The notes beneath the pieces are model-generated. The model searched no databases. It saw only the letters and a list, made by a program, of their open reading frames with translations, and had not been told where the DNA came from. A stretch of DNA of 64,000 nucleotides. It comes from Octopus sinensis (Eukaryota). Of this stretch, positions 16,377-39,442 are shown piece by piece. Numbering within the stretch: position 1 is the stretch's first letter; each line of letters starts with the position of its first letter. Made by a program: the position numbers and the translations under genes. The DNA lies in contig NC_042998.1 in the NCBI RefSeq assembly GCF_006345805.1, positions 13,516,001-13,580,000 on the forward strand. The letters run 5' to 3'.

Positions 16377-16482
16377 GTGTGTAGAGCCAGCTAGAGACGA
16401 AGATCTCTTGGGGCTATAAAGCTACAGTAACACCCACTCCCTAATGTGGTTAGCCATGATAAGATGGCTTCTATACTTTACA
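16377..16482 (+). repeat. ~105-bp direct repeat, left copy (host repeat of the Tx1 insertion)
   Basis: gtgt-tagagccagctagagacgaagatctcttg...gataagatggcttctatactttaca recurs with a few substitutions at 24769-24875. Confidence 0.9.
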
Positions 16483-16603
16483 TTATCGAGCGATTACTGT
16501 TTCAATCGCATTCTGAGATTTAATTATGCTTACTGTTCGTTTTTCGACATCAGTGGCAGACGCCATTAGAAAAACTTATATCTATTTGCAAAGGAGCCTT
16601 CAC

Positions 16604-16621
16604 TTTCATCGCGACCTGGTG
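16604..16621 (+). repeat. 18-bp target site duplication (copies at 22152-22169 and 24639-24656)
   Basis: TTTCATCGCGACCTGGTG occurs twice and TTTCATCGCTACCTGGTG once, exactly at the element boundaries. Confidence 0.9.
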
Positions 16622-16873
16622 TTTTTTGAATTTTTCCTCGGCGTATACCAATATTTTTCTGTTGCTGCAAATCGTTGTGTGAGTTCGTTTCCGTTTGTCT
16701 ACTCTGTCATGTTACAAGTAATATCATTGTTGAACTGTTTTTGACCCAGTAATTTTCGCCCTTCGGGGTAGAAGATTTCTGTGTGCTGTTTTGTATGAAC
16801 TCTTAACCTGTATAGGTTATTTTTGGAAAAAAAAAATTCTCTTGTCATTTGTGACAAGTTTGTGTTGTCTAAT

Positions 16874-18393
16874 ATGGAATTAGACTTAAGTTCAAAAAAA
16901 GACTTTCCCGAGATGGGAGAAAGTATAACAACTGTTAAACAAAAGGAAACACAGACAAAACCCAGTTTTTCAGACGCCGTAGGTGGCGAAGTCGAAGAAA
17001 TGGAGGTATCAATGGAAAGATTATTCAAGTTTAGATCGCTGGTGCAAAAAAGTGTGCAGAAGAAACACGATTGGTACCGCCCCCCGAAACTATACAAGCA
17101 ATAAAGGAAAAAATGGTCACCTACAGGGTGTACAATATCAAGGAAAAACGAATGACCGACGTGAAAAACGAAATGGTCGAAAAGTGTATGGCTCCAATAT
17201 GGAGTAAAGTTAGTCATGTCAACCGAGGTGCAAGAAGCGCTACAGTGGAGGCGCATTTTGAAACGGCGGAAGTAGCAAGGCAAATTCGACACAAACGTTG
17301 AAAAACGAGAGTATAATACTGCTACCCTTATATTTAGGATGCAGAACCGCAAAAGTGACCCTAGAAGATATACCAACGGGCTACGACGTGATGTGGGCGG
17401 CAACAGCGGTCATTTTTGATGTTGAATCAAAATTGACAATTTTAAGTATGAAGAGAAAAATTGCAAAACACTGGAGAGGACAGCAGCTGGAGATGATAAT
17501 CCAGGCGGAAAATGCGACGTTGGAAAGCCTACCAGACAGAGTCTTCGTGGGGGAGGGGCACTCCATACGAGTTTCGGTGGAAGGACGCAGGCCCAGATGT
17601 TTTAAGTGCGGGCAAAAGGGCCACGTTCGCTCCGTTTGCACAAAAAAAAATAATGCGGGCAACGCCCCCCCACACAAAACGCTGTGAAGAACGCAGAAAG
17701 CAGCAAAGTGGAGAAAAAAGTAACGGCTGGCGAAAACAAGGAGGAAAAAATAAACAGGTCGAACTCCAAAAAGGAGGAAGACAAGAACGAAATGCAAAAT
17801 GAGAAAGGAAAGGATGAGGAAAATAATGCAACAAAAACAAATAAACAAGAAGACATGGAATTTACGAACGTGTCCAACAAAAGGAAAAAATCCATCACCC
17901 CTGACTCCCCACCCGTATCAAAAAAAAAAACAACGCAGACGAACAAATTAAAAATATTCTCCAATCCCACCCCGGCGGTACTACACTTATAGGCCAGCAC
18001 TTTAACAAACCCCACCCCCGACTGTGTAAAGGGTTTAAACCCAACGAAAAAATTATTGCATACACCACAAAGAACGTGAGAGTAGAAACATGGGTGAAAG
18101 CAAGTACGCTGATCAGGTGCTACAAAGCGACCGAGAAGGAAGCGGAGTGGCGATATGGAAGGGTCGGCGAAGAAGGATGGAAAGACAAAACCTTACAAAG
18201 CCACGTAAAAGCCGGCTTCATTAAGGATGTCACCCAGGAGGTGACAACTGGGAAATTACCCGTTAGCCCGGCAGCCACACCAACCCAGAGCCCGGTGGCA
18301 ACGCCGGTGAAACACCCACAGCAACGGCGAGTGGGGGGGAGACAGGCAGAAGAAAGAATCTGTCAGGCTCCCTCTCGCAACCGTGAGTAAATA
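16874..18393 (+). pseudogene. Tx1 ORF1 (gag-like nucleic-acid-binding protein), split by single-base frameshifts
   Basis: Zinc knuckle RCFKCGQKGHVRSVC (CX2CX4HX4C) lies in ORF 17298-17687. The pieces are contiguous in copy 2 (ORF 22598-23938). Confidence 0.85.
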
Positions 18394-18408
18394 ATTTTCT
18401 TTTTCTCG

Positions 18409-21400
18409 ATGATTAAGTTAGGTTGTATAAATGTGCGTGGAATGGGATCGAAATGGAAACAGGCTTGTTTTCGTGACGACCTCATTTCACATAGAATCGA
18501 AGTAGCTATTGTTACCGAGTCCAAGATGAAGGGACCCCAAGCGTTCTCACCACTTCTCAATGGTTACGAGAAATTTATTTCTCCTAGCCGAGGGGGAGGT
18601 GCAGGCGTGGCAGTTCTTTTCAGGAAGAACTTGGACTTACAGGTAAGTACTGTCTTTTTGGACCCAGAAGGTAGGCTGGTTGTCCTAGATGTGACGCACG
18701 TGAGTAAGCAGTCCTTCAGGTTGGTGGCTGTCTACGCTCCTAACGGACGTGGGCAGACCGGTTTTTATCGGGAACTGGAGCACTTTCTAGTGACGTCCAA
18801 AACGGTAGTCTTGGTAGGGGATTTCAACACCATTCTCGATGCGCGGGTGATGGTGTAGGCTCGAGCGATAGGAAGGGGAATCCTGGCCTCAAGGCTCTAC
18901 TAGCGAGCTTTAATCTAGTAGACCGTTTTCGACTGGATGAGCCGAACGTTCCACAGTGGACGTGGAGTAATAACGACGGCTCACTCAGATCGTACATAGA
19001 TAGAGTATTTGTTAAGGAACGAGATAGGAATAGTGTTAGCTGTCCACAATTCTCTGTTGTGCCTTACACGGATCACAAACTTGTAACGTGTGAGGTACAT
19101 GTAGATAAATGCCATAGACAAGGTCCCGGGTACTGGAAGATGAACAAGTCTATTTTGACCTGTGAAGCTTTCCGTACCCGGATTAAGGAATTAGTACAGA
19201 GGGCATTATGTGGCACCATCATTAATAATAGATGGTGGCTCGCCCTCAAAAGAGCCATCCGTTTGGAGTCCATTAGATTTAGCAAGCAGCTAAGTTTAGG
19301 TAGGACTAGAATAGAGGGCGAATTAGTTAAGAACTTAGACGAGGCTATGGAATCTGGCTGTGCATCCGGAGTGTTGGCAGCGAGAGCGGTATTGTACCGT
19401 CACCTCAACGCCAAGCACGAGGGGTGTAGAGTCAGAGCTAAGTTACGTGCAGGAAAACGAGAAGGTATTAACGTTGCCGGATGGGCCCGTCGTGAGGAGA
19501 GTCAGAAGGGCAAAAAGTCCTGTATTATGTCCTTAACTGACGAGCAGGACCGCAAGATCTATGGACAGGAGGAGATGCAGAAGGTCCTTCACCAGCATTT
19601 CGCACGGCTGTTTGGGGGCGGTGGCCCGCTCGAGCGTGGGGAGACCTTAAAGGACTTCCTAGCTGGTGGGCCTCGGCTCTCGGCAGGTGAGGCGGAGTGC
19701 TGTGAAGGATCGATCTCTCCCGCAGAGGTAAGAGGGGCTATGGCCGAGTGCGCCGGGGAAAAGTCACCGGGATTGGATGGTCTACCCTATGAATTTTATT
19801 GTTGTATGCCGGACTTGTTCGGGGACATACTGGCAGGCGTCTATGCAAACTGGCAGCAGAATGGGAGGATTCCCAGCTCTGTGAGTCGGGGAGTTGTGAC
19901 GCTGGTCCAGAAAGACCCGAGCAAGGGGGACAGTATTAGTAATTACAGGCCCATAACTCTACTTAATGTAGAGTTTAAGATTTTGGCCAAGGTGTTAGCA
20001 AAAAGGTTGACGGCTGTCGTGAAGAAACTTGTCGGGAAGGCACAGACATGTGCAATCCCAGGCAGGTCGATCCAGGATAATCTTCACCTTCTCCGCTACA
20101 CTATAGATAGGGTCGGGAAATTAGACGGCAAGGAGGGGCATTGGTCCATTTAGACCAAAGTAAAGCGTTTGATAGGGTGGACCATCGGTACTTGGCGGCG
20201 GTTCTCGAAGCGGCTGGGCTGGGCCCTGGCTTCTGCGGGTGGATCTCAGCTATGTACAGCGGCATCAAGTCCACAGTCCAGATAAACGGTTACCTAACGG
20301 AGCCGTTTTCGATCAAGCGTTCAGTTCGACAAGGGTGCCCCTTGTCCCCGCCTGTATGTTTTGGCTCTTGAGCCATTGCTGCGGAAGCTGGAGAAGTTGG
20401 GAGGCAACCCTAATGAAATCGGATGCGGTAAGTCTGTTTCTGCCTATGCGGATGACGTCACCCTCATCGTGTCCAACGGAACACAGCTACCTCGGGTAGT
20501 AGGTGCTCTCCATAGATACGAAGCGGTGGCAGGGGCAAAAGTTAACAGGGACAAGTCCATCGGTTTGCGCCTCGGCACCTGGAGGAACAAGCAGATACCG
20601 TCCAGTGTGTTGGACACTGGACGGATGGTCCTGTTAAATTGCTCGGAGTATGGTTTGGTCCAGACTCCCAGACGAGAAGGAGAAGAATTGGAGCGAGGTA
20701 ACGAGCAAGGTGGATGCCATAGTACGGAAGTGGTCCGGAAGGCATCTTTCCTTGAAAGGGAGGGCGGAGGTGGCACAGATGTTTATAGCCTCTGTCGTCA
20801 CCTACCGCCTGACCGTCGTGCCTTGCCCCGATTCGTGGTTAAACAAGTTGGAACGACTTCTTTTCCGCTTTTTGTGGAAAGGAGGAAAGCCACTTGTGAG
20901 ACGCTCCGTGTGTTGCCAGGAACCGCTAAAGGGTGGACTGGGGATGCCTTGGCTAATGATGCGCAAGCATGCGTTGAGGCTGAGACACCTCTGGTGTTAC
21001 CTGGAGGATGATAAGGTGTGGAGTTCGCTGGCAGAGGAATTCTTCCCGCGACCGGCCTCTATGGAGGGATTTACACCCGGTCTCATTAAGGACGTAAACT
21101 GACTTCATGGCAGAAGGAGTGCCGACAGGCACTCTGGCTGATCCACAAGATGGGTAAGGCCGGCAGCGGGAATACCACCTCGGTGTTCTATAAAGGGCTG
21201 GTAGGAGGAAAAAATGACGACGTCCTAGGAAGGGCTCTGGGGTTCGATGAGGATCAACTCTCCAACCTGTTTAAGAAGACTTTCAGGCCGGGGTATTTGG
21301 ATAATTACCAAAAATCCCTGACCTGGCAGTGCTATAGGAATGCATTACCTGTTCGCGAGAAGTTATCCAGGCACGGAATGTCAGTGCCACCGACGTGTCC

Positions 21401-21800
21401 AAGATGTGGGTTGGACGATGATGAAACCGTTCAACACGCTTTTGTACAATGTCGGGAGCTGTCAGGCTTGATAAGTTACGTGGAACACGTGTTGTCGCAT
21501 CTGGGACGAGTACAGCTGTCGGCTGGATCTATGATTAAGATGATACCGCCAACTGGACTCTCAAAGGAAGGTAAGGCTTGTTTTTACTGTACGGTGGCAG
21601 TATTGAAAGAGTGTGTATGGAGAACTAGAGTGGAAGGTCTAGTGAAAGGGTCCTTTATCTCTGGCCCCGGTTTGTTAAAATACTTCGGATATCATCTGAA
21701 GAGCAAGATGGGGTTGGAGAAGAGGAGCCTGCCACAGAAAGAGTATATGGAACGTTGGAAGGATGTGATGAGAAAGGTGGGTGAGAGTAGCCCAGCTTAA
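18409..21800 (+). pseudogene. Tx1 ORF2: apurinic-type endonuclease + reverse transcriptase + C-terminal zinc finger, frameshifted
   Basis: APE motifs: INVRG, VYAP, GDFN, IDRVF, TDHK, GYWKMN. RT motifs: SPGLDGL, NYRPITLLNVEFKILAK, LDQSKAFDRVDH, RQGCPLSP, YADD. C-terminal CPRC...ETVQHAFVQC. Confidence 0.93.
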
Positions 21801-22169
21801 TCATCGAGGAGGAAAGGAGGGATCGGCTGCTGGGATTTATAGGCTGCCGGGTTCAAAATTGAAACTGGTACCTCCCATTACCTTCACTGTACATAACTGT
21901 TTAAAATAAAGAATTAATAATAAAAAAACAAATGAAAAGAAAACATACGCACTAAAAGTTCTCGTGATAAAGGCAAAAGTAAGCCAAGGTTTCGTTTCAA
22001 GGCAAAGTAAGCCAAGTTTTCGTTCAAGTGACATAAAATTTTAATTTTGTAATTTTTTAAATTTCATTCGAACTCGCATAGCATTTTTGTAACTGTTTTG
22101 TCCTGTAATGTATCCATTCTATGTTAGATCTATTGATCATAATAAAGAAAATTTCATCGCGACCTGGTG

Positions 22170-24638
22170 TTTTTTTGAATTTTTCCTCGGCGTATACCAA
22201 TTTTTCTGTTGCTGCAAACGTGTGTGAGTTCGTTTCCGTTGTCTACTCTGTCGTGTTACAAGTAATATCATTGTTGAACTGTTTTTGACCCAGTAATTTT
22301 CGCCCTTCGGGGTAGAAAATTTCTGTGTGTGCTTTTTGTGTGAACTCTTAACCTGTATAGGTTAATTTTGGAAAAAAAAAAATTCTCTGTCATGTGTGAC
22401 AAGTTTGTGTTGTCTAATATGGAATTAGACTTAAGTTCAAAAAAAAAGACTTTCCGAGAGGGAGAAAGTATAACAACTGTTAAACAAAAGGAAACACAGA
22501 CAAAACCCAGTTTTTCAGACGCCGTAGGTGGCGCGAGTCGAAGAAATGGAGGTATCAATGGAAAGATTATTCAAGTTTAGATCGCTGGTGCAAAAAAGTG
22601 GCAGAAAAGCGAAGAAACACGATTGGTACCGCCCCCCGAAACTATACAAGCAATAAAGGAAAAAATGGTCACCTACAGGGGTACAATATCAAGGAAAAAC
22701 GAATGACCGACGTGAAAAAAGAAATGGTCGAAAAGTGTATGGCTCCAATATGGAGTAAAGTTAGTCATGTCAACCGAGGTGCAAGAAGCGCTACAGTGGA
22801 GGCGCATTTTGAAACGGCGGAAGTAGCAAGGCAAATTTCGACACAAACGTTGAAAAACGAGAGTATAATACTGCTACCCTTATATTTAGGATGCAGAACC
22901 GCAAAAGTGACCCTAGAAGATATACCAACGGGCTACGACGTGATGTGGGCGGCAACAGCGGTCATTTTTGATGTTGAATCAAAATTGACAATTTTAAGTA
23001 TGAAGAGAAAAATTGCAAAACACTGGAGAGGCCAGCAGCTGGAGATGATAATCCAGGCGGAAAATGCGACGTTGGAAAGCCTACCAGACAGAGTCTTCGT
23101 GGGGGAGGGGCACTCCATACGAGTTTCGGTGGAAGGACGCAGGCCCAGATGTTTTAAGTGCGGGCAAAAGGGCCACGTTCGCTCCGTTTGCACAAAAAAA
23201 AATAATGCGGGCAACGCCCCCCCACAAAACGCTGTGAGGAACGCAGAAAGCAGCAAAGTGGAGAAAAAAGTAACGGCTGGCGAAAACAAGGAGGAAAAAA
23301 TAAACAGGTCGAACTCCAAAAAGGAGGAAGACAAGAACGAAATGCAAAATGAGAAAGGAAAGGATGAGGAAAATAATGCAACAAAAACAAATAAACAAGA
23401 AGACATGGAATTTACGAACGTGTCCAACAAAAGGAAAAAATCCATCACCCCTGACTCCCCACCCGTATCAAAAAAAAAAAACAACGCAGACGAACAAATT
23501 AAAAATATTCTCCAATCCCCCGGCGGTACTACACTTATAGGCCAGCACTTTAACAAACCCCACCCCCCAACTGTAAAAGGTTTTAAACCCAACGAAAAAA
23601 TTATTGCATACACCACAAAGAACGTGAGAGTAGAAACATGGGTGAAAGCAAGTACGCTGATCAGGTGCTACAAAGCGACCGAGAAGGAAGCGGAGTGGCG
23701 ATATGGAAGGGTAGGCGAAGAAGGATGGAAAGACAAAACCTTACAAAGCCACGTAAAAGCCGGCTTCATTAAGGATGTCACCCAGGAGGTGACAACTGGG
23801 AAATTACCCGTTAGCCGGCAGCCACACCAACCAGAGCCCGGTGGCAACGCCGGTGAAACACCCAGCAGCAACGGCGAGTGGGGGGGAGACAGGCAGAAAG
23901 AATCTGTCAGGCTCCCTCTCGCAACCGTGAGTAAATAATTTTCTTTTTCTCGATGATTAGTTAGGTTGTATAAATGTGCGTGGAATGGGATCGAAATGGA
24001 AACAGGCTTGTTTTCGTGACGACCTCATTTCACATAGAATCGAAGTAGCTATTGTTACCGAGTCCAAGATGAAGGGACCCCAAGCGTTCTCACCACTTCT
24101 CAATGGTTACGAGAATTTATTTCTCCTAGCCGAGGGGGAGGTGCAGGCGTGGCAGTTCTTTTCAGGAAGAACTTGGACTTACAGGTAAGTACTGTCTTTT
24201 TGGACCCAGAAGGTAGGCTGGTTGTCCTAGATGTGACGCACGTGAGTAAGCAGTCCTTCAGGTTGGTGGCTGTCTACGCTCCTAACGGACGTGGGCAGAC
24301 CGGTTTTTATCGGGAACTGGAGCACTTTCTAGTGACGTCCAAAACGGTAGTCTTGGTAGGGGATTTCAACACCATTCTCGATGCGCGGGTGGATGGTGTA
24401 GGCTCGAGCGATAGGAAGGGGAATCCTGGCCTCAAGGCTCTACTAGCGAGCTTTAATCTAGTAGACCGTTTTCGACTGGATGAGCCGAACGTTCCACAGT
24501 GGACGTGGAGTAATAACGACGGCTCACTCAGATCGTACATAGATAGAGTATTTGTTAAGGAACGAGATAGGAATAGTGTTAGCTGTCCACAATTCTCTGT
24601 TGTGCCTTACACGGATCTATTAATCATAATAAAGAAAA
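22170..24638 (+). mobile_element. Second tandem Tx1 copy with ~3.05-kb internal deletion (no RT)
   Basis: Near-identical to 16622-19074. At GATC (24614-24617) it joins directly to the last ~25 nt of the element (tattaatcataataaagaaaa). Confidence 0.9.
22598..23938 (+). CDS. Tx1 ORF1 of copy 2 (446-aa frame; true start probably near 22419 with upstream frameshifts)
   Basis: Contains the CCHC knuckle, a K/E/N-rich linker and a C-terminal region ending ATVSK* just before ORF2. Confidence 0.75.
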   Translation: MAEKRRNTIGTAPRNYTSNKGKNGHLQGYNIKEKRMTDVKKEMVEKCMAPIWSKVSHVNRGARSATVEAHFETAEVARQISTQTLKNESIILLPLYLGCRTAKVTLEDIPTGYDVMWAATAVIFDVESKLTILSMKRKIAKHWRGQQLEMIIQAENATLESLPDRVFVGEGHSIRVSVEGRRPRCFKCGQKGHVRSVCTKKNNAGNAPPQNAVRNAESSKVEKKVTAGENKEEKINRSNSKKEEDKNEMQNEKGKDEENNATKTNKQEDMEFTNVSNKRKKSITPDSPPVSKKKNNADEQIKNILQSPGGTTLIGQHFNKPHPPTVKGFKPNEKIIAYTTKNVRVETWVKASTLIRCYKATEKEAEWRYGRVGEEGWKDKTLQSHVKAGFIKDVTQEVTTGKLPVSRQPHQPEPGGNAGETPSSNGEWGGDRQKESVRLPLATVSK

Positions 24639-24661
24639 TTTCATCGCTACCTGGTGGTTGC

Positions 24662-24704
24662 CGCTCGTTGACGAGGGACAAACATCCCGATACTAGTTCG
24701 AGCG
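24662..24704 (+). ncRNA. Type I minimal hammerhead-ribozyme-like motif (degenerate core)
   Basis: Reads CGCTCG-TTGACGA-GGGA caaaca TCCC-GATA-CTAG-TT-CGAGCG, giving a 6-bp helix I, 4-bp helix II and palindromic helix III. It deviates from the consensus at C3 (U) and GAAA (GAUA). Confidence 0.65.
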
Positions 24705-24768
24705 TATCACTCAGGTTTGCGAGGAAGGGATGGCCCCCCTTTGCAAATACTCCAAAGACACAGATATT

Positions 24769-24875
24769 GTGTTTAGAGCCAGCTAGAGACGAAGATCTCT
24801 TGAGGCTATAAAGCTACAGTAACAACCCCCTCCCCAATGTGGTTAGCCACGATAAGATGGCTTCTATACTTTACA
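24769..24875 (+). repeat. ~105-bp direct repeat, right copy
   Basis: Matches 16377-16482. Confidence 0.9.
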
Positions 24876-37568: not shown

Positions 37569-37581
37569 CTAAATGTGTAAC

Positions 37582-37685
37582 ACTTACAGCACCTAGGTTT
37601 CCCAAGCGGTCAGCCATCTAAGTACTAAGTAGTCTCGACGTTGCTTAACTTCGGTGATCGGACGAGAACCGGTGCTTTCAACGTG
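37582..37685 (-). pseudogene. 5S rRNA pseudogene (5'-truncated/diverged)
   Basis: Minus strand reads cacgttgaaagcaccggttctcgtccgatcaccgaagttaagcaacgtcgagactacttagtacttagatggctgaccgcttgggaaacctaggtgctgtaag. This matches metazoan 5S rRNA from about nt 15 to the 3' end. Confidence 0.9.
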
Positions 37686-39442
37686 AAGGTGTGGAAATCA
37701 TATATACTAGCTGGGAAATATCATGATTAATTATAAAAGTTATTGAAAACAAAATGTAGCATAAGCACAGGAATTAAGGATACGATAGAATAAGTGCTAT
37801 AGCTACCGCTTTATTCAATAACGCCTCTGGCATTTATGCACTGTATAACTTTTCAAATTTTATCTACGGTTCTCTAATCTGGACTATCCTCTCCTACATC
37901 TTGGTGAGCAAATGTCATCGGCACTTCTCTAAAGTTGTTCTTTTTTTTATTATTTTGCTGTAATTAACCTTAGTGTTCTAGGTTGGAGTGTTGACTCGAC
38001 ACAAACATCGTTTCACCTTTTACCAGCGATAGTCCAGATTCGTTCTATCCCTATCGTTTAACCTGCTCAGCATGGAGACCACACTAGGAACCTGCGCTCC
38101 GTTGGTGTAGCTTCGCAGAGCCATTGAACCACAAATGCAACGACAACGTTACAAGAACTATATCTAGTGGTAGAAATATTATAGGAATACGTCGTTCCAG
38201 TGTCATAATAGGATAATAATTTTTGTTATGTTTACAGATGTAGGAGAATTAAAGTCATCGTTGGCCTTGAATTGCTCATTCATTATTGCGATCTCATTTT
38301 TGATCAAAAGATATTAAACGTATATGTGCATACTTTTCATTTTTGCTACAAGGGTTAACTAATATTGTCATATTAATTCATTCTGTAGAGTTAAATAAAA
38401 TGAGTTTTAAAGTAACTGAGAACATATCCGAGATCTTTGAGCGTTTTCTCTATAATAGGAGACACATTCTTTACCACATATTACATTCAATATTAAATTG
38501 CTAGAAAAATATATTAATATCTCATTGACTTGATATTTGCAAAGAAATGGATTTCAATTTCATTTTTTCATTTTTCTCTTCGCTATGAAAAATAAACTCA
38601 GCTACAGAAACAATTCACAAGGAGATAGATAATTGCTGTTTCGTATGAGAAATATAAGTGAATAGTGCACTGCGTATTCAAATAGAAATAAATAAGAAAT
38701 ATTATACGGTAGTCGGCATTACACCACATGATATATTTCCCTGCAGCCGTTCATTGTTTATTGGAATCTGTAACGCTAAACCACACACGATTTAGTTGCT
38801 ATATTCAATAAGAAAAATATGAATAATCAAATGTAAACAATGGTATTATGTTATTATTTGCAAATACGATTAGGTAAAGTGCATTATAACTGTTTCCTAT
38901 TAAAAATTTTCGATTCCGCTACATGTCATGCAATTATTGAACAGCACGCAAAAGCATCATATCTTTGATGACAAAAATATACAGAAAATTATTAAGAATA
39001 GATACACGCGCATCGTTCATGAACATGAACATATACTTGGAATTAAAGCTATCATCCGAAATGACATTAATATCCATAAATGTACAGCGCAGCTGCGGAT
39101 TTATAACTGATAACGTTTCTAAGTAACAACCCTTTTCGAATGGCAGGATGTAAAACATTACATATGCGTTCGTAATTTAATAATTACATTTTTAAAACAT
39201 TACATTATAGAAAAAACCGGTTCCAGAGCATTCGGCTTATATTTGCTGTATGCCATTCATCAACATTGGAGGGAATTTACTAGAGCGAAACCCATTTTAT
39301 TCAAGTAGTCGTCGAGAATGGTCAGGTCGAGCTGATCATATGAGAAAATAATGTTATCCTAAGTACTGAGAATTGTGTTCACAACACTCCTGCATCGGCA
39401 AGAGAGCGGAACGCAGAGGAAATCAGTGCACCGAAAACTTCC

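Follow-up and report, generated by a model that had tools for sequence, protein, structure and literature searches.

A hammerhead retrozyme of Octopus sinensis with a predicted snRNA-type start and Penelope-like insertion ends is the target of an L1/Tx1-type LINE

The transcription and mobilisation of animal retrozymes are described as an open question (PMC7229834; bioRxiv 10.64898/2026.07.22.740005). Mussel retrozymes of 350-390 nucleotides (nt) accumulate as circles (PMC7229834). The hammerhead repeat satellite 2 of newts is cited as using a small nuclear RNA (snRNA) promoter (Coats 1994, in PMC2220036), and the known layout of such promoters places a proximal element about 60 nt upstream of the start (PMC4494074). 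An anole Penelope-like protein starts reverse transcription in vitro at two internal sites that bound a tail (PMC11167929), and for long interspersed nuclear elements (LINEs) of the Tx1 clade a figure legend of PMC4494074 lists a 'satellite' target, the satellite being unnamed there. The present analysis concerns a 64,000-nt stretch of the Octopus sinensis genome (RefSeq assembly GCF_006345805.1, contig NC_042998.1, positions 13,516,001 to 13,580,000, forward strand; hereafter the window), in which a 357-nt hammerhead retrozyme is interrupted by two copies of an L1/Tx1-type LINE. It is likely that this retrozyme is transcribed from its own snRNA-type promoter and copied by a Penelope-type enzyme, and that the LINE inserts at its predicted start.

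The LINE was searched for by its 3' end, free of flanking sequence, which gave 222 candidates, 40 of which were scored. The 3' end is present in 39 of these, and in 38 of the 39 it lies at the retrozyme target: 29 run straight into the retrozyme, eight run into a target copy followed by another LINE, and one runs into 10 nt of target followed by an unrelated fragment, while the last runs into base 1 of a U2 gene. The 5' end is intact in 38 of the 40 copies, the 3' junctions are exact and without poly(A) variation, and the target duplications measure 14-18 nt, as befits a target-specific element. LINE bodies that are 96-98% alike lie in retrozymes that are only 67-79% alike, which favours repeated targeting over hitchhiking. 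A pattern count of LINE ends was discarded given that chance matches swamped it (552 versus 389 in the control). More diverged LINE lineages, about 60-83% alike, are stacked head-to-tail at the same target (L063, L066, L099-L102, L108-L110), which indicates that the targeting is old. The same join of target and LINE also occurs in one contig of a run labelled as another species. Assembled contigs of runs presumed to be RNA span the retrozyme unit and portions of the LINE, but they reveal neither ends nor strand and are given no weight as evidence.

The position of this target suggests what the LINE may recognise. ATCAGT stands 57-60 nt before base 1 in most of the U1, U2 and U5 genes fetched, as expected for the proximal element of a promoter of snRNA (SNAPc) type, and it stands 56-59 nt before the target ATCG in retrozyme families A (the 357-nt family of the window), B, C and E; in the window it begins at 16549, 59 nt before 16608. 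With a matrix trained on 10 snRNA promoters, the site at about -58 ranks first in families A and C. The filled sites differ from the empty ones in how much of the unit lies upstream. In family A, each of the 21 filled targets is preceded by 171 nt or more of the unit, and 140 nt or more precede seven of 26 empty targets (p = 1e-7 versus filled; 16 of 42 when all empties are counted). In family B, the same comparison gives four of four filled and nine of 26 empty targets (p = 0.03). The 15-nt piece of retrozyme carried at the 5' end of the LINE in the U2 gene begins at unit position 301-302, and four of 26 loci, including the window, show a G/T mismatch between their 5' and 3' target copies at one and the same position. 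Both observations fit a LINE RNA that starts at the retrozyme start. The target of the LINE is therefore likely to be the transcription start of the retrozyme, and not a helix.

Two side observations touch on this promoter. Among filled sites, the least upstream sequence that is kept reaches to window 16437-16475 (unit positions 131-170), a region that holds GTGGTTAGCC, which resembles two words found about 280-300 nt before the U2 gene in locus L061 and was not found before U1 or U5; it is a possible distal element. The U2 gene that carries the LINE belongs to an array of at least 10 U2 genes (L061 2038-7583; G000:C3 around 19.69-19.74 Mb), where the LINE sits at base 1 with a 14-nt duplication.

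In the window, the retrozyme and the two LINE copies are laid out as follows.

16377-16621, forward strand: retrozyme portion to the left of the LINE copies, unit positions 71-315 (counted from the first base past GUU as position 1)
16549-16555, forward strand: ATCAGTG motif, a predicted snRNA-type proximal element 59 nt before the predicted start, from motif and spacing as upstream of U1, U2 and U5
16583-16594, forward strand: 5' arm of the outer rod helix, preceding the predicted start, from folding and covariation
16604-16621, forward strand: target copy 1, 18 nt, G variant at 16613, with the predicted transcription start at 16608
16622-22151, forward strand: full-length L1/Tx1-type LINE, 5,530 nt
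22152-22169, forward strand: target copy 2, G variant, separating the two LINE copies
22170-24638, forward strand: second LINE copy, with an internal deletion
24639-24656, forward strand: target copy 3, T variant, the family majority
24662-24704, forward strand: type I hammerhead, with helix I, core, helix II, GAUA, palindromic helix III and the GUU site after 24698
24705-24749, forward strand: 3' arm of the rod, with the outer helix at its far end (24738-24749), from folding and covariation
24769-24875, forward strand: terminal redundancy, 94% identical to 16377-16482

Position 24875 is the first of two fixed 3' ends of the retrozyme family and would correspond to a start of reverse transcription. 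Around the retrozyme insertion of the window no clear target duplication was seen. Away from this locus, the window holds a 5S ribosomal RNA gene or pseudogene (37581-37698, reverse strand, 71.5 bits).

The LINE at 16622-22151 has a first open reading frame (ORF1) with a zinc knuckle and a second (ORF2) with an apurinic/apyrimidinic endonuclease (APE), a reverse transcriptase (RT) and a zf-RVT domain, is frameshifted, and ends in AATAAAGAAAA without a poly(A) run. Its closest relative of solved structure is human L1 ORF2p (E = 2e-62), which places it near the L1 group. Among the 120 homologs listed, the nearest named LINE protein comes from Argonauta hians (65% identical) and no named Tx1 reference appears; the Tx1 label, which comes from the initial annotation, is based on architecture and behaviour. 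In the second copy, the 5' 2.45 kb, 97.8% identical to the first copy, meet the final ~25 nt of the element at a GATC microhomology. Both this copy (window 24614-24617) and the one in L069 have lost a large internal segment at a short microhomology, the deletion in L069 reaching into the retrozyme itself. Both window copies carry many single-base frameshifts, often in homopolymers, which may be assembly errors given that L078 keeps an ORF2 of 1,134 amino acids at 99% identity.

The retrozyme itself is a family spread through the genome. A DNA search of the 2.72-Gb genome returned 1,221 candidates, 40 of which were scored, and the sister families, 67-79% alike, returned 4,296, 2,392 and 1,986 candidates, which are overlapping counts and not copy numbers. 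The unit is non-coding, highly self-paired and within the 150-450 nt range of non-LTR (long terminal repeat) retrozymes, with one hammerhead per unit and with tandem copies: eight exact dimer matches occur at six places and one array reaches 3.9 units, with a period of 356-357, and most copies span 0.8-1.4 units. The core of the window hammerhead is UUGACGA (24668-74), with a U at position 3. The 149 distinct cores are led by UUGACGA with GUU (50), CUGAUGA with GUC (31, 9 and 9) and UUGACGA with GUC (23). The form of family A is UUGACGA/GAAA/GUU and the sister families have the canonical CUGAUGA, GAAA and GUC; helix III is palindromic in the commonest form of every family, as in amphibian motifs that cleave as dimers (PMC7229834). 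Each core position is intact in 46-48 of 48 loci. The 357-nt unit is accordingly assigned to the non-LTR retrozymes with a type I hammerhead, as a new family within this known class. A viroid, which replicates from RNA to RNA and has no DNA form, was rejected, as more than 1,000 candidate DNA copies bear marks of retrotransposition.

The copy in the window is probably dead. It has a single hammerhead and a private A14U change at 24691, reading GAUA for the GAAA of the family (one of 48 loci). For this reason, the suggestion of the initial annotation that the unit is or was transcribed, self-cleaved and circularised can hold for the family only. The back-splice reads that it proposed as a check are not diagnostic, given that GUU|CGAG already stand side by side in the genomic DNA of almost all copies.

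It had also been proposed from the sequence that the empty site folds into one long rod capped by the hammerhead. The empty site was rebuilt by removing all sequence between 16621 and 24657. In it, 16583-16594 is the exact reverse complement of 24738-24749, and all the pairs listed inward from there lie where they had been placed, including CGCTCG (24662-67) with CGAGCG (24699-704). The joined 132-nt rod folds at -62.5 kcal/mol, compared with -36.4 +/- 3.6 kcal/mol for shuffled sequences (z -7.2; none of 300 as good), and the joined 357-nt unit reaches z -5.5 when linear and -6.3 when circular (none of 200 shuffles as good in either case); the rod-like fold is confirmed. Uninterrupted copies occur naturally in the genome, and z values of -3.5 to -6.6 were obtained for five natural rods drawn from four families, which indicates that the reconstruction is not an artefact. 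Three natural monomers give z -3.3 to -8.2 with 59-65% of bases paired. The extra stability is located in the rod, given that the remaining 225 nt of a natural monomer fold no better than shuffles (z -1.3). Helix III and the active core are missing from the minimum-energy fold. A stable fold is also obtained for the reverse strand (z -5.1), and for this reason the strand cannot be read from energy alone.

Comparison among copies leads to the same fold. In an alignment of 11 chosen copies from four families, 91.5% of the cells pair, compared with 37-55% for slid controls. Changes on both sides of a pair are found in eight of 37 pairs across the four related families, two of the eight being in the outer helix, and helices I and II covary among families; one middle helix whose register shifts between families was left out of this count. 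These compensatory changes and the cores of the sister families thus support the first annotation of a retrozyme-like unit bearing a type I hammerhead and a long, conserved rod. When natural monomers are cut at GUU, their 5' and 3' ends are paired with each other by the rod, a geometry that would favour ligation. The initial annotation had read the LINE target as the 5' strand of an extended helix I. As a position this stands, and the evidence favours the promoter, not the helix, as its reason: the target lies on the 5' strand of the rod given that the predicted start lies there. If transcription begins at 16608, the outermost 25 nt of this strand precede the start, and the outer helix would require an RNA that spans a whole unit.

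The ends of the genomic copies bear on how the retrozyme is mobilised. Among 30 loci, 15 have their 3' end at unit positions 176-181, 12 at 220-231 and three elsewhere, giving two fixed 3' ends about 45 nt apart. The query forced the ends past unit position 176, and filled loci and family B, which were chosen otherwise, show the same two ends. The 5' ends are variable and truncated, the copies usually being cut within 300-500 nt, and about one third of the 30 loci carry an inverted arm. Two fixed 3' ends, 5' truncation, an inverted 5' arm and AT-rich sites together constitute the signature of Penelope elements. Repeats within a locus differ by 2.2% and those between loci by 3.7%. At nine subfamily positions (position 307, G/T, being excluded from this haplotype count) there are 161 agreements within loci versus 15 disagreements, with 66.5 disagreements expected if the repeats were independent. 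Haplotypes shared within a locus fit a reading round a one-unit template; a circle would be the simplest such template, a re-read linear RNA being the alternative. In L008, L079 and L089 the inverted and direct arms carry different subfamily haplotypes, which suggests two template molecules in one insertion. The possibility that a long leader, of up to 315 nt, was copied along with the LINE is not supported, given that the 5' and 3' flanks of filled loci differ no more than the repeats of empty loci and share haplotypes.

Other Penelope-like sequences were met in the course of the analysis. Loci L209-L238 belong to a young autonomous Penelope-like family with an open frame of 775 amino acids and a hammerhead-like motif with a CCGAAGA or CTGAAGA core and a palindromic helix III. 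Like the retrozyme, this family has two fixed 3' ends, here spaced by about 28 nt and lying in TA repeats. In L064 (2034-3200, reverse strand), a fragment with a Penelope-like RT and a GIY-YIG domain adjoins the 3' end of the LINE after 10 nt of target; as a partner of the retrozyme it was rejected as an unrelated neighbour. The Penelope family of L205 was also rejected as a partner, since unit-like matches at E < 0.01 occur in three of 30 family loci and none of them is the element's own end.

From these observations, a course of events can be proposed. Transcription would start at 16608, in keeping with the position of ATCAGTG, and continue through tandem or redundant units. Hammerheads, probably paired via the palindromic helix III, would excise the 357-nt monomer, whose ends the rod would hold together, favouring ligation into a circle. 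A Penelope-type RT would then start internally and read round the one-unit template; genomic copies run across the cleavage site, reach 3.9 units and end at two fixed internal sites. The LINE may be guided to active snRNA-type starts and may itself be transcribed from the retrozyme promoter; almost every copy of it is full length, and some begin with 14-15 nt of target. The retrozyme remnant downstream of the LINE keeps helix I and the core, and a read-through LINE RNA could be cut by this hammerhead 60 nt past the LINE end.

Several observations weigh against this reading. On the side of the promoter, the site at about -58 ranks third with the snRNA matrix in family B and falls outside the top three in family E, the motif is missing in two of 21 filled family A sites, and only 23 nt remain upstream of the filled site of L096. 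Searches of the unit for an snRNA 3' box (no score above 4.7 bits) and for a distal motif common to the retrozyme and the snRNA genes were negative. No copy of this LINE family was found at 20 U1 loci, 20 U5 loci or the further U2 genes of the array. As for the ribozyme, Rfam detects no hammerhead in the window at the gathering threshold or in four loci at E <= 1, and family A has a U at position 3 and a helix III of one or two pairs. The covariation amounts to few independent events in four families only. No autonomous partner with a homologous end was found among 98 loci of the GIY-YIG/Penelope-like element type from more than 5,000 candidates, and in the anole element cleavage is dispensable for insertion (PMC11167929).

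Four other explanations were weighed, two of which concern the LINE. Its endonuclease could recognise plain DNA sequence, with RNA ends derived from the target, in which case the promoter would be incidental and the U2 insertion an off-target event through the shared ATCGCT. The (T/A)(T/C)ATCG-like bases at the nick, common to all targets, agree with this, as do the exact 3' junctions without poly(A) variation and the U1 and U5 starts that lack the LINE. Sequence alone leaves unexplained, however, that none of the 21 filled family A targets has less than 140 nt of upstream unit whereas 19 of the 26 empty ones do, and the targets of families A, B, C and E and of U2 diverge widely after the first 4-5 bases; this explanation is therefore considered unlikely. 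Much less can be said for a spread of the LINE by hitchhiking, that is, from one or few insertions mobilised as a composite by the retrozyme. Two of the 40 copies (L065 and L099) are 5'-truncated with flanks other than retrozyme, as such a process could leave, but near-identical LINEs sit in retrozyme families 67-79% alike, nearly all 5' ends are intact although retrozyme copies are usually cut within a few hundred nucleotides, and flank lengths and inversions vary by locus. Hitchhiking has already been largely refuted and is judged very improbable.

The other two explanations concern the RNA. The outer arms might be conserved as DNA elements, with octamer-like TTTGCA words in both orientations, and not as an RNA helix. 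Both strands of the rod fold, and the arms hold TATTTGCA and TGCAAATA, which we take to resemble the octamer word. Against this, family E changes both outer arms in a compensatory manner (CA to TG with TG to CA), destroying the octamer-like word and keeping the pairs, and one-sided G-U changes are found on the forward strand, making conservation as DNA very improbable. More weight must be given to the proposal that there is no circle, and that the template is a linear, uncleaved read-through RNA along which a Penelope-type RT, starting from an internal site, re-reads or jumps, the rod serving as a folding or binding element. In the anole, hammerhead mutants inserted normally and no ends of RNA were mapped to the cleavage site (PMC11167929); here, tandem arrays able to yield such a linear RNA exist, and the core of family A looks weak. 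Nonetheless, each new subfamily variant stands in both repeats of its locus, which is not readily obtained from a linear master whose ends are redundant, the hammerhead core is intact in nearly all loci, and the mussel retrozymes of similar length accumulate as circles (PMC7229834). A linear template is regarded as quite possible, though short of probable.

Taken at its fullest, the circular reading would comprise three tiers: a circular ribozyme RNA with an snRNA-type promoter would parasitise Penelope enzymes, and a LINE would dock on SNAPc-bound starts, pick the promoter-complete copies and use their promoter, with the downstream hammerhead trimming the LINE 3' end at 60 nt into the target. 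This fuller version is put forward tentatively, as it seems somewhat more apt to fail than to hold. If true, it would represent promoter-guided targeting by an APE-type animal LINE, and LINE occupancy would be a direct read-out of active retrozyme copies. The dependence of the LINE on upstream length suggests in any case a targeting by promoter state and not by sequence alone, which is of interest for the biology of site-specific LINEs and for tools derived from them. The retrozyme family moreover offers named positions: a predicted start (unit position 302), a cleavage site, two RT starts and an end-joining rod. The system is set apart by its Penelope footprint, by the snRNA-type start predicted for it and by a LINE whose targeting depends on upstream length. 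In the literature searched, to which Repbase and paper supplements did not belong, no report of a LINE targeting retrozymes was found.

Compared with the described systems, the octopus family shares with metazoan non-LTR retrozymes a non-coding unit (350-357 nt here), a type I hammerhead, copies from monomer to multimer and a self-paired fold (PMC7229834; bioRxiv 10.64898/2026.07.22.740005), as well as the presence of Penelope-like elements in the same genome and a helix III of the amphibian dimer type. It differs in that most copies span 0.8-1.4 units and do not form long arrays. The portions consulted of the same retrozyme accounts mention neither a pair of fixed 3' ends nor a motif of snRNA type nor a LINE dedicated to the repeat, all of which are seen here. 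Newt satellite 2 is likewise a hammerhead repeat, of about 330 nt, with a reported snRNA-type promoter (PMC2220036). For the octopus retrozyme this promoter is a prediction from sequence. We know of no LINE that targets newt satellite 2. The PAc element of the green anole resembles the present family in its two internal RT starts downstream of the hammerhead, AT-rich targets, truncation and inversion (PMC11167929; 10.1101/2021.04.23.441226), whereas the retrozyme unit is non-coding and its tail measures about 45 nt. As for the LINE, Tx1 in Tx1D, Tx1-Mar in Mariner-N4 and Keno in U2 also combine ORF1 with an APE-RT ORF2 and occupy a fixed site in a multicopy repeat, and target-specific LINEs of the Tx1 clade likewise show target duplication and tandem stacking (PMC4494074; PMC4640811). 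The single U2 insertion found here lies at base 1. The LINE of the octopus differs from these relatives in that its target is a hammerhead retrozyme, entered at the predicted start and in dependence on the upstream length.

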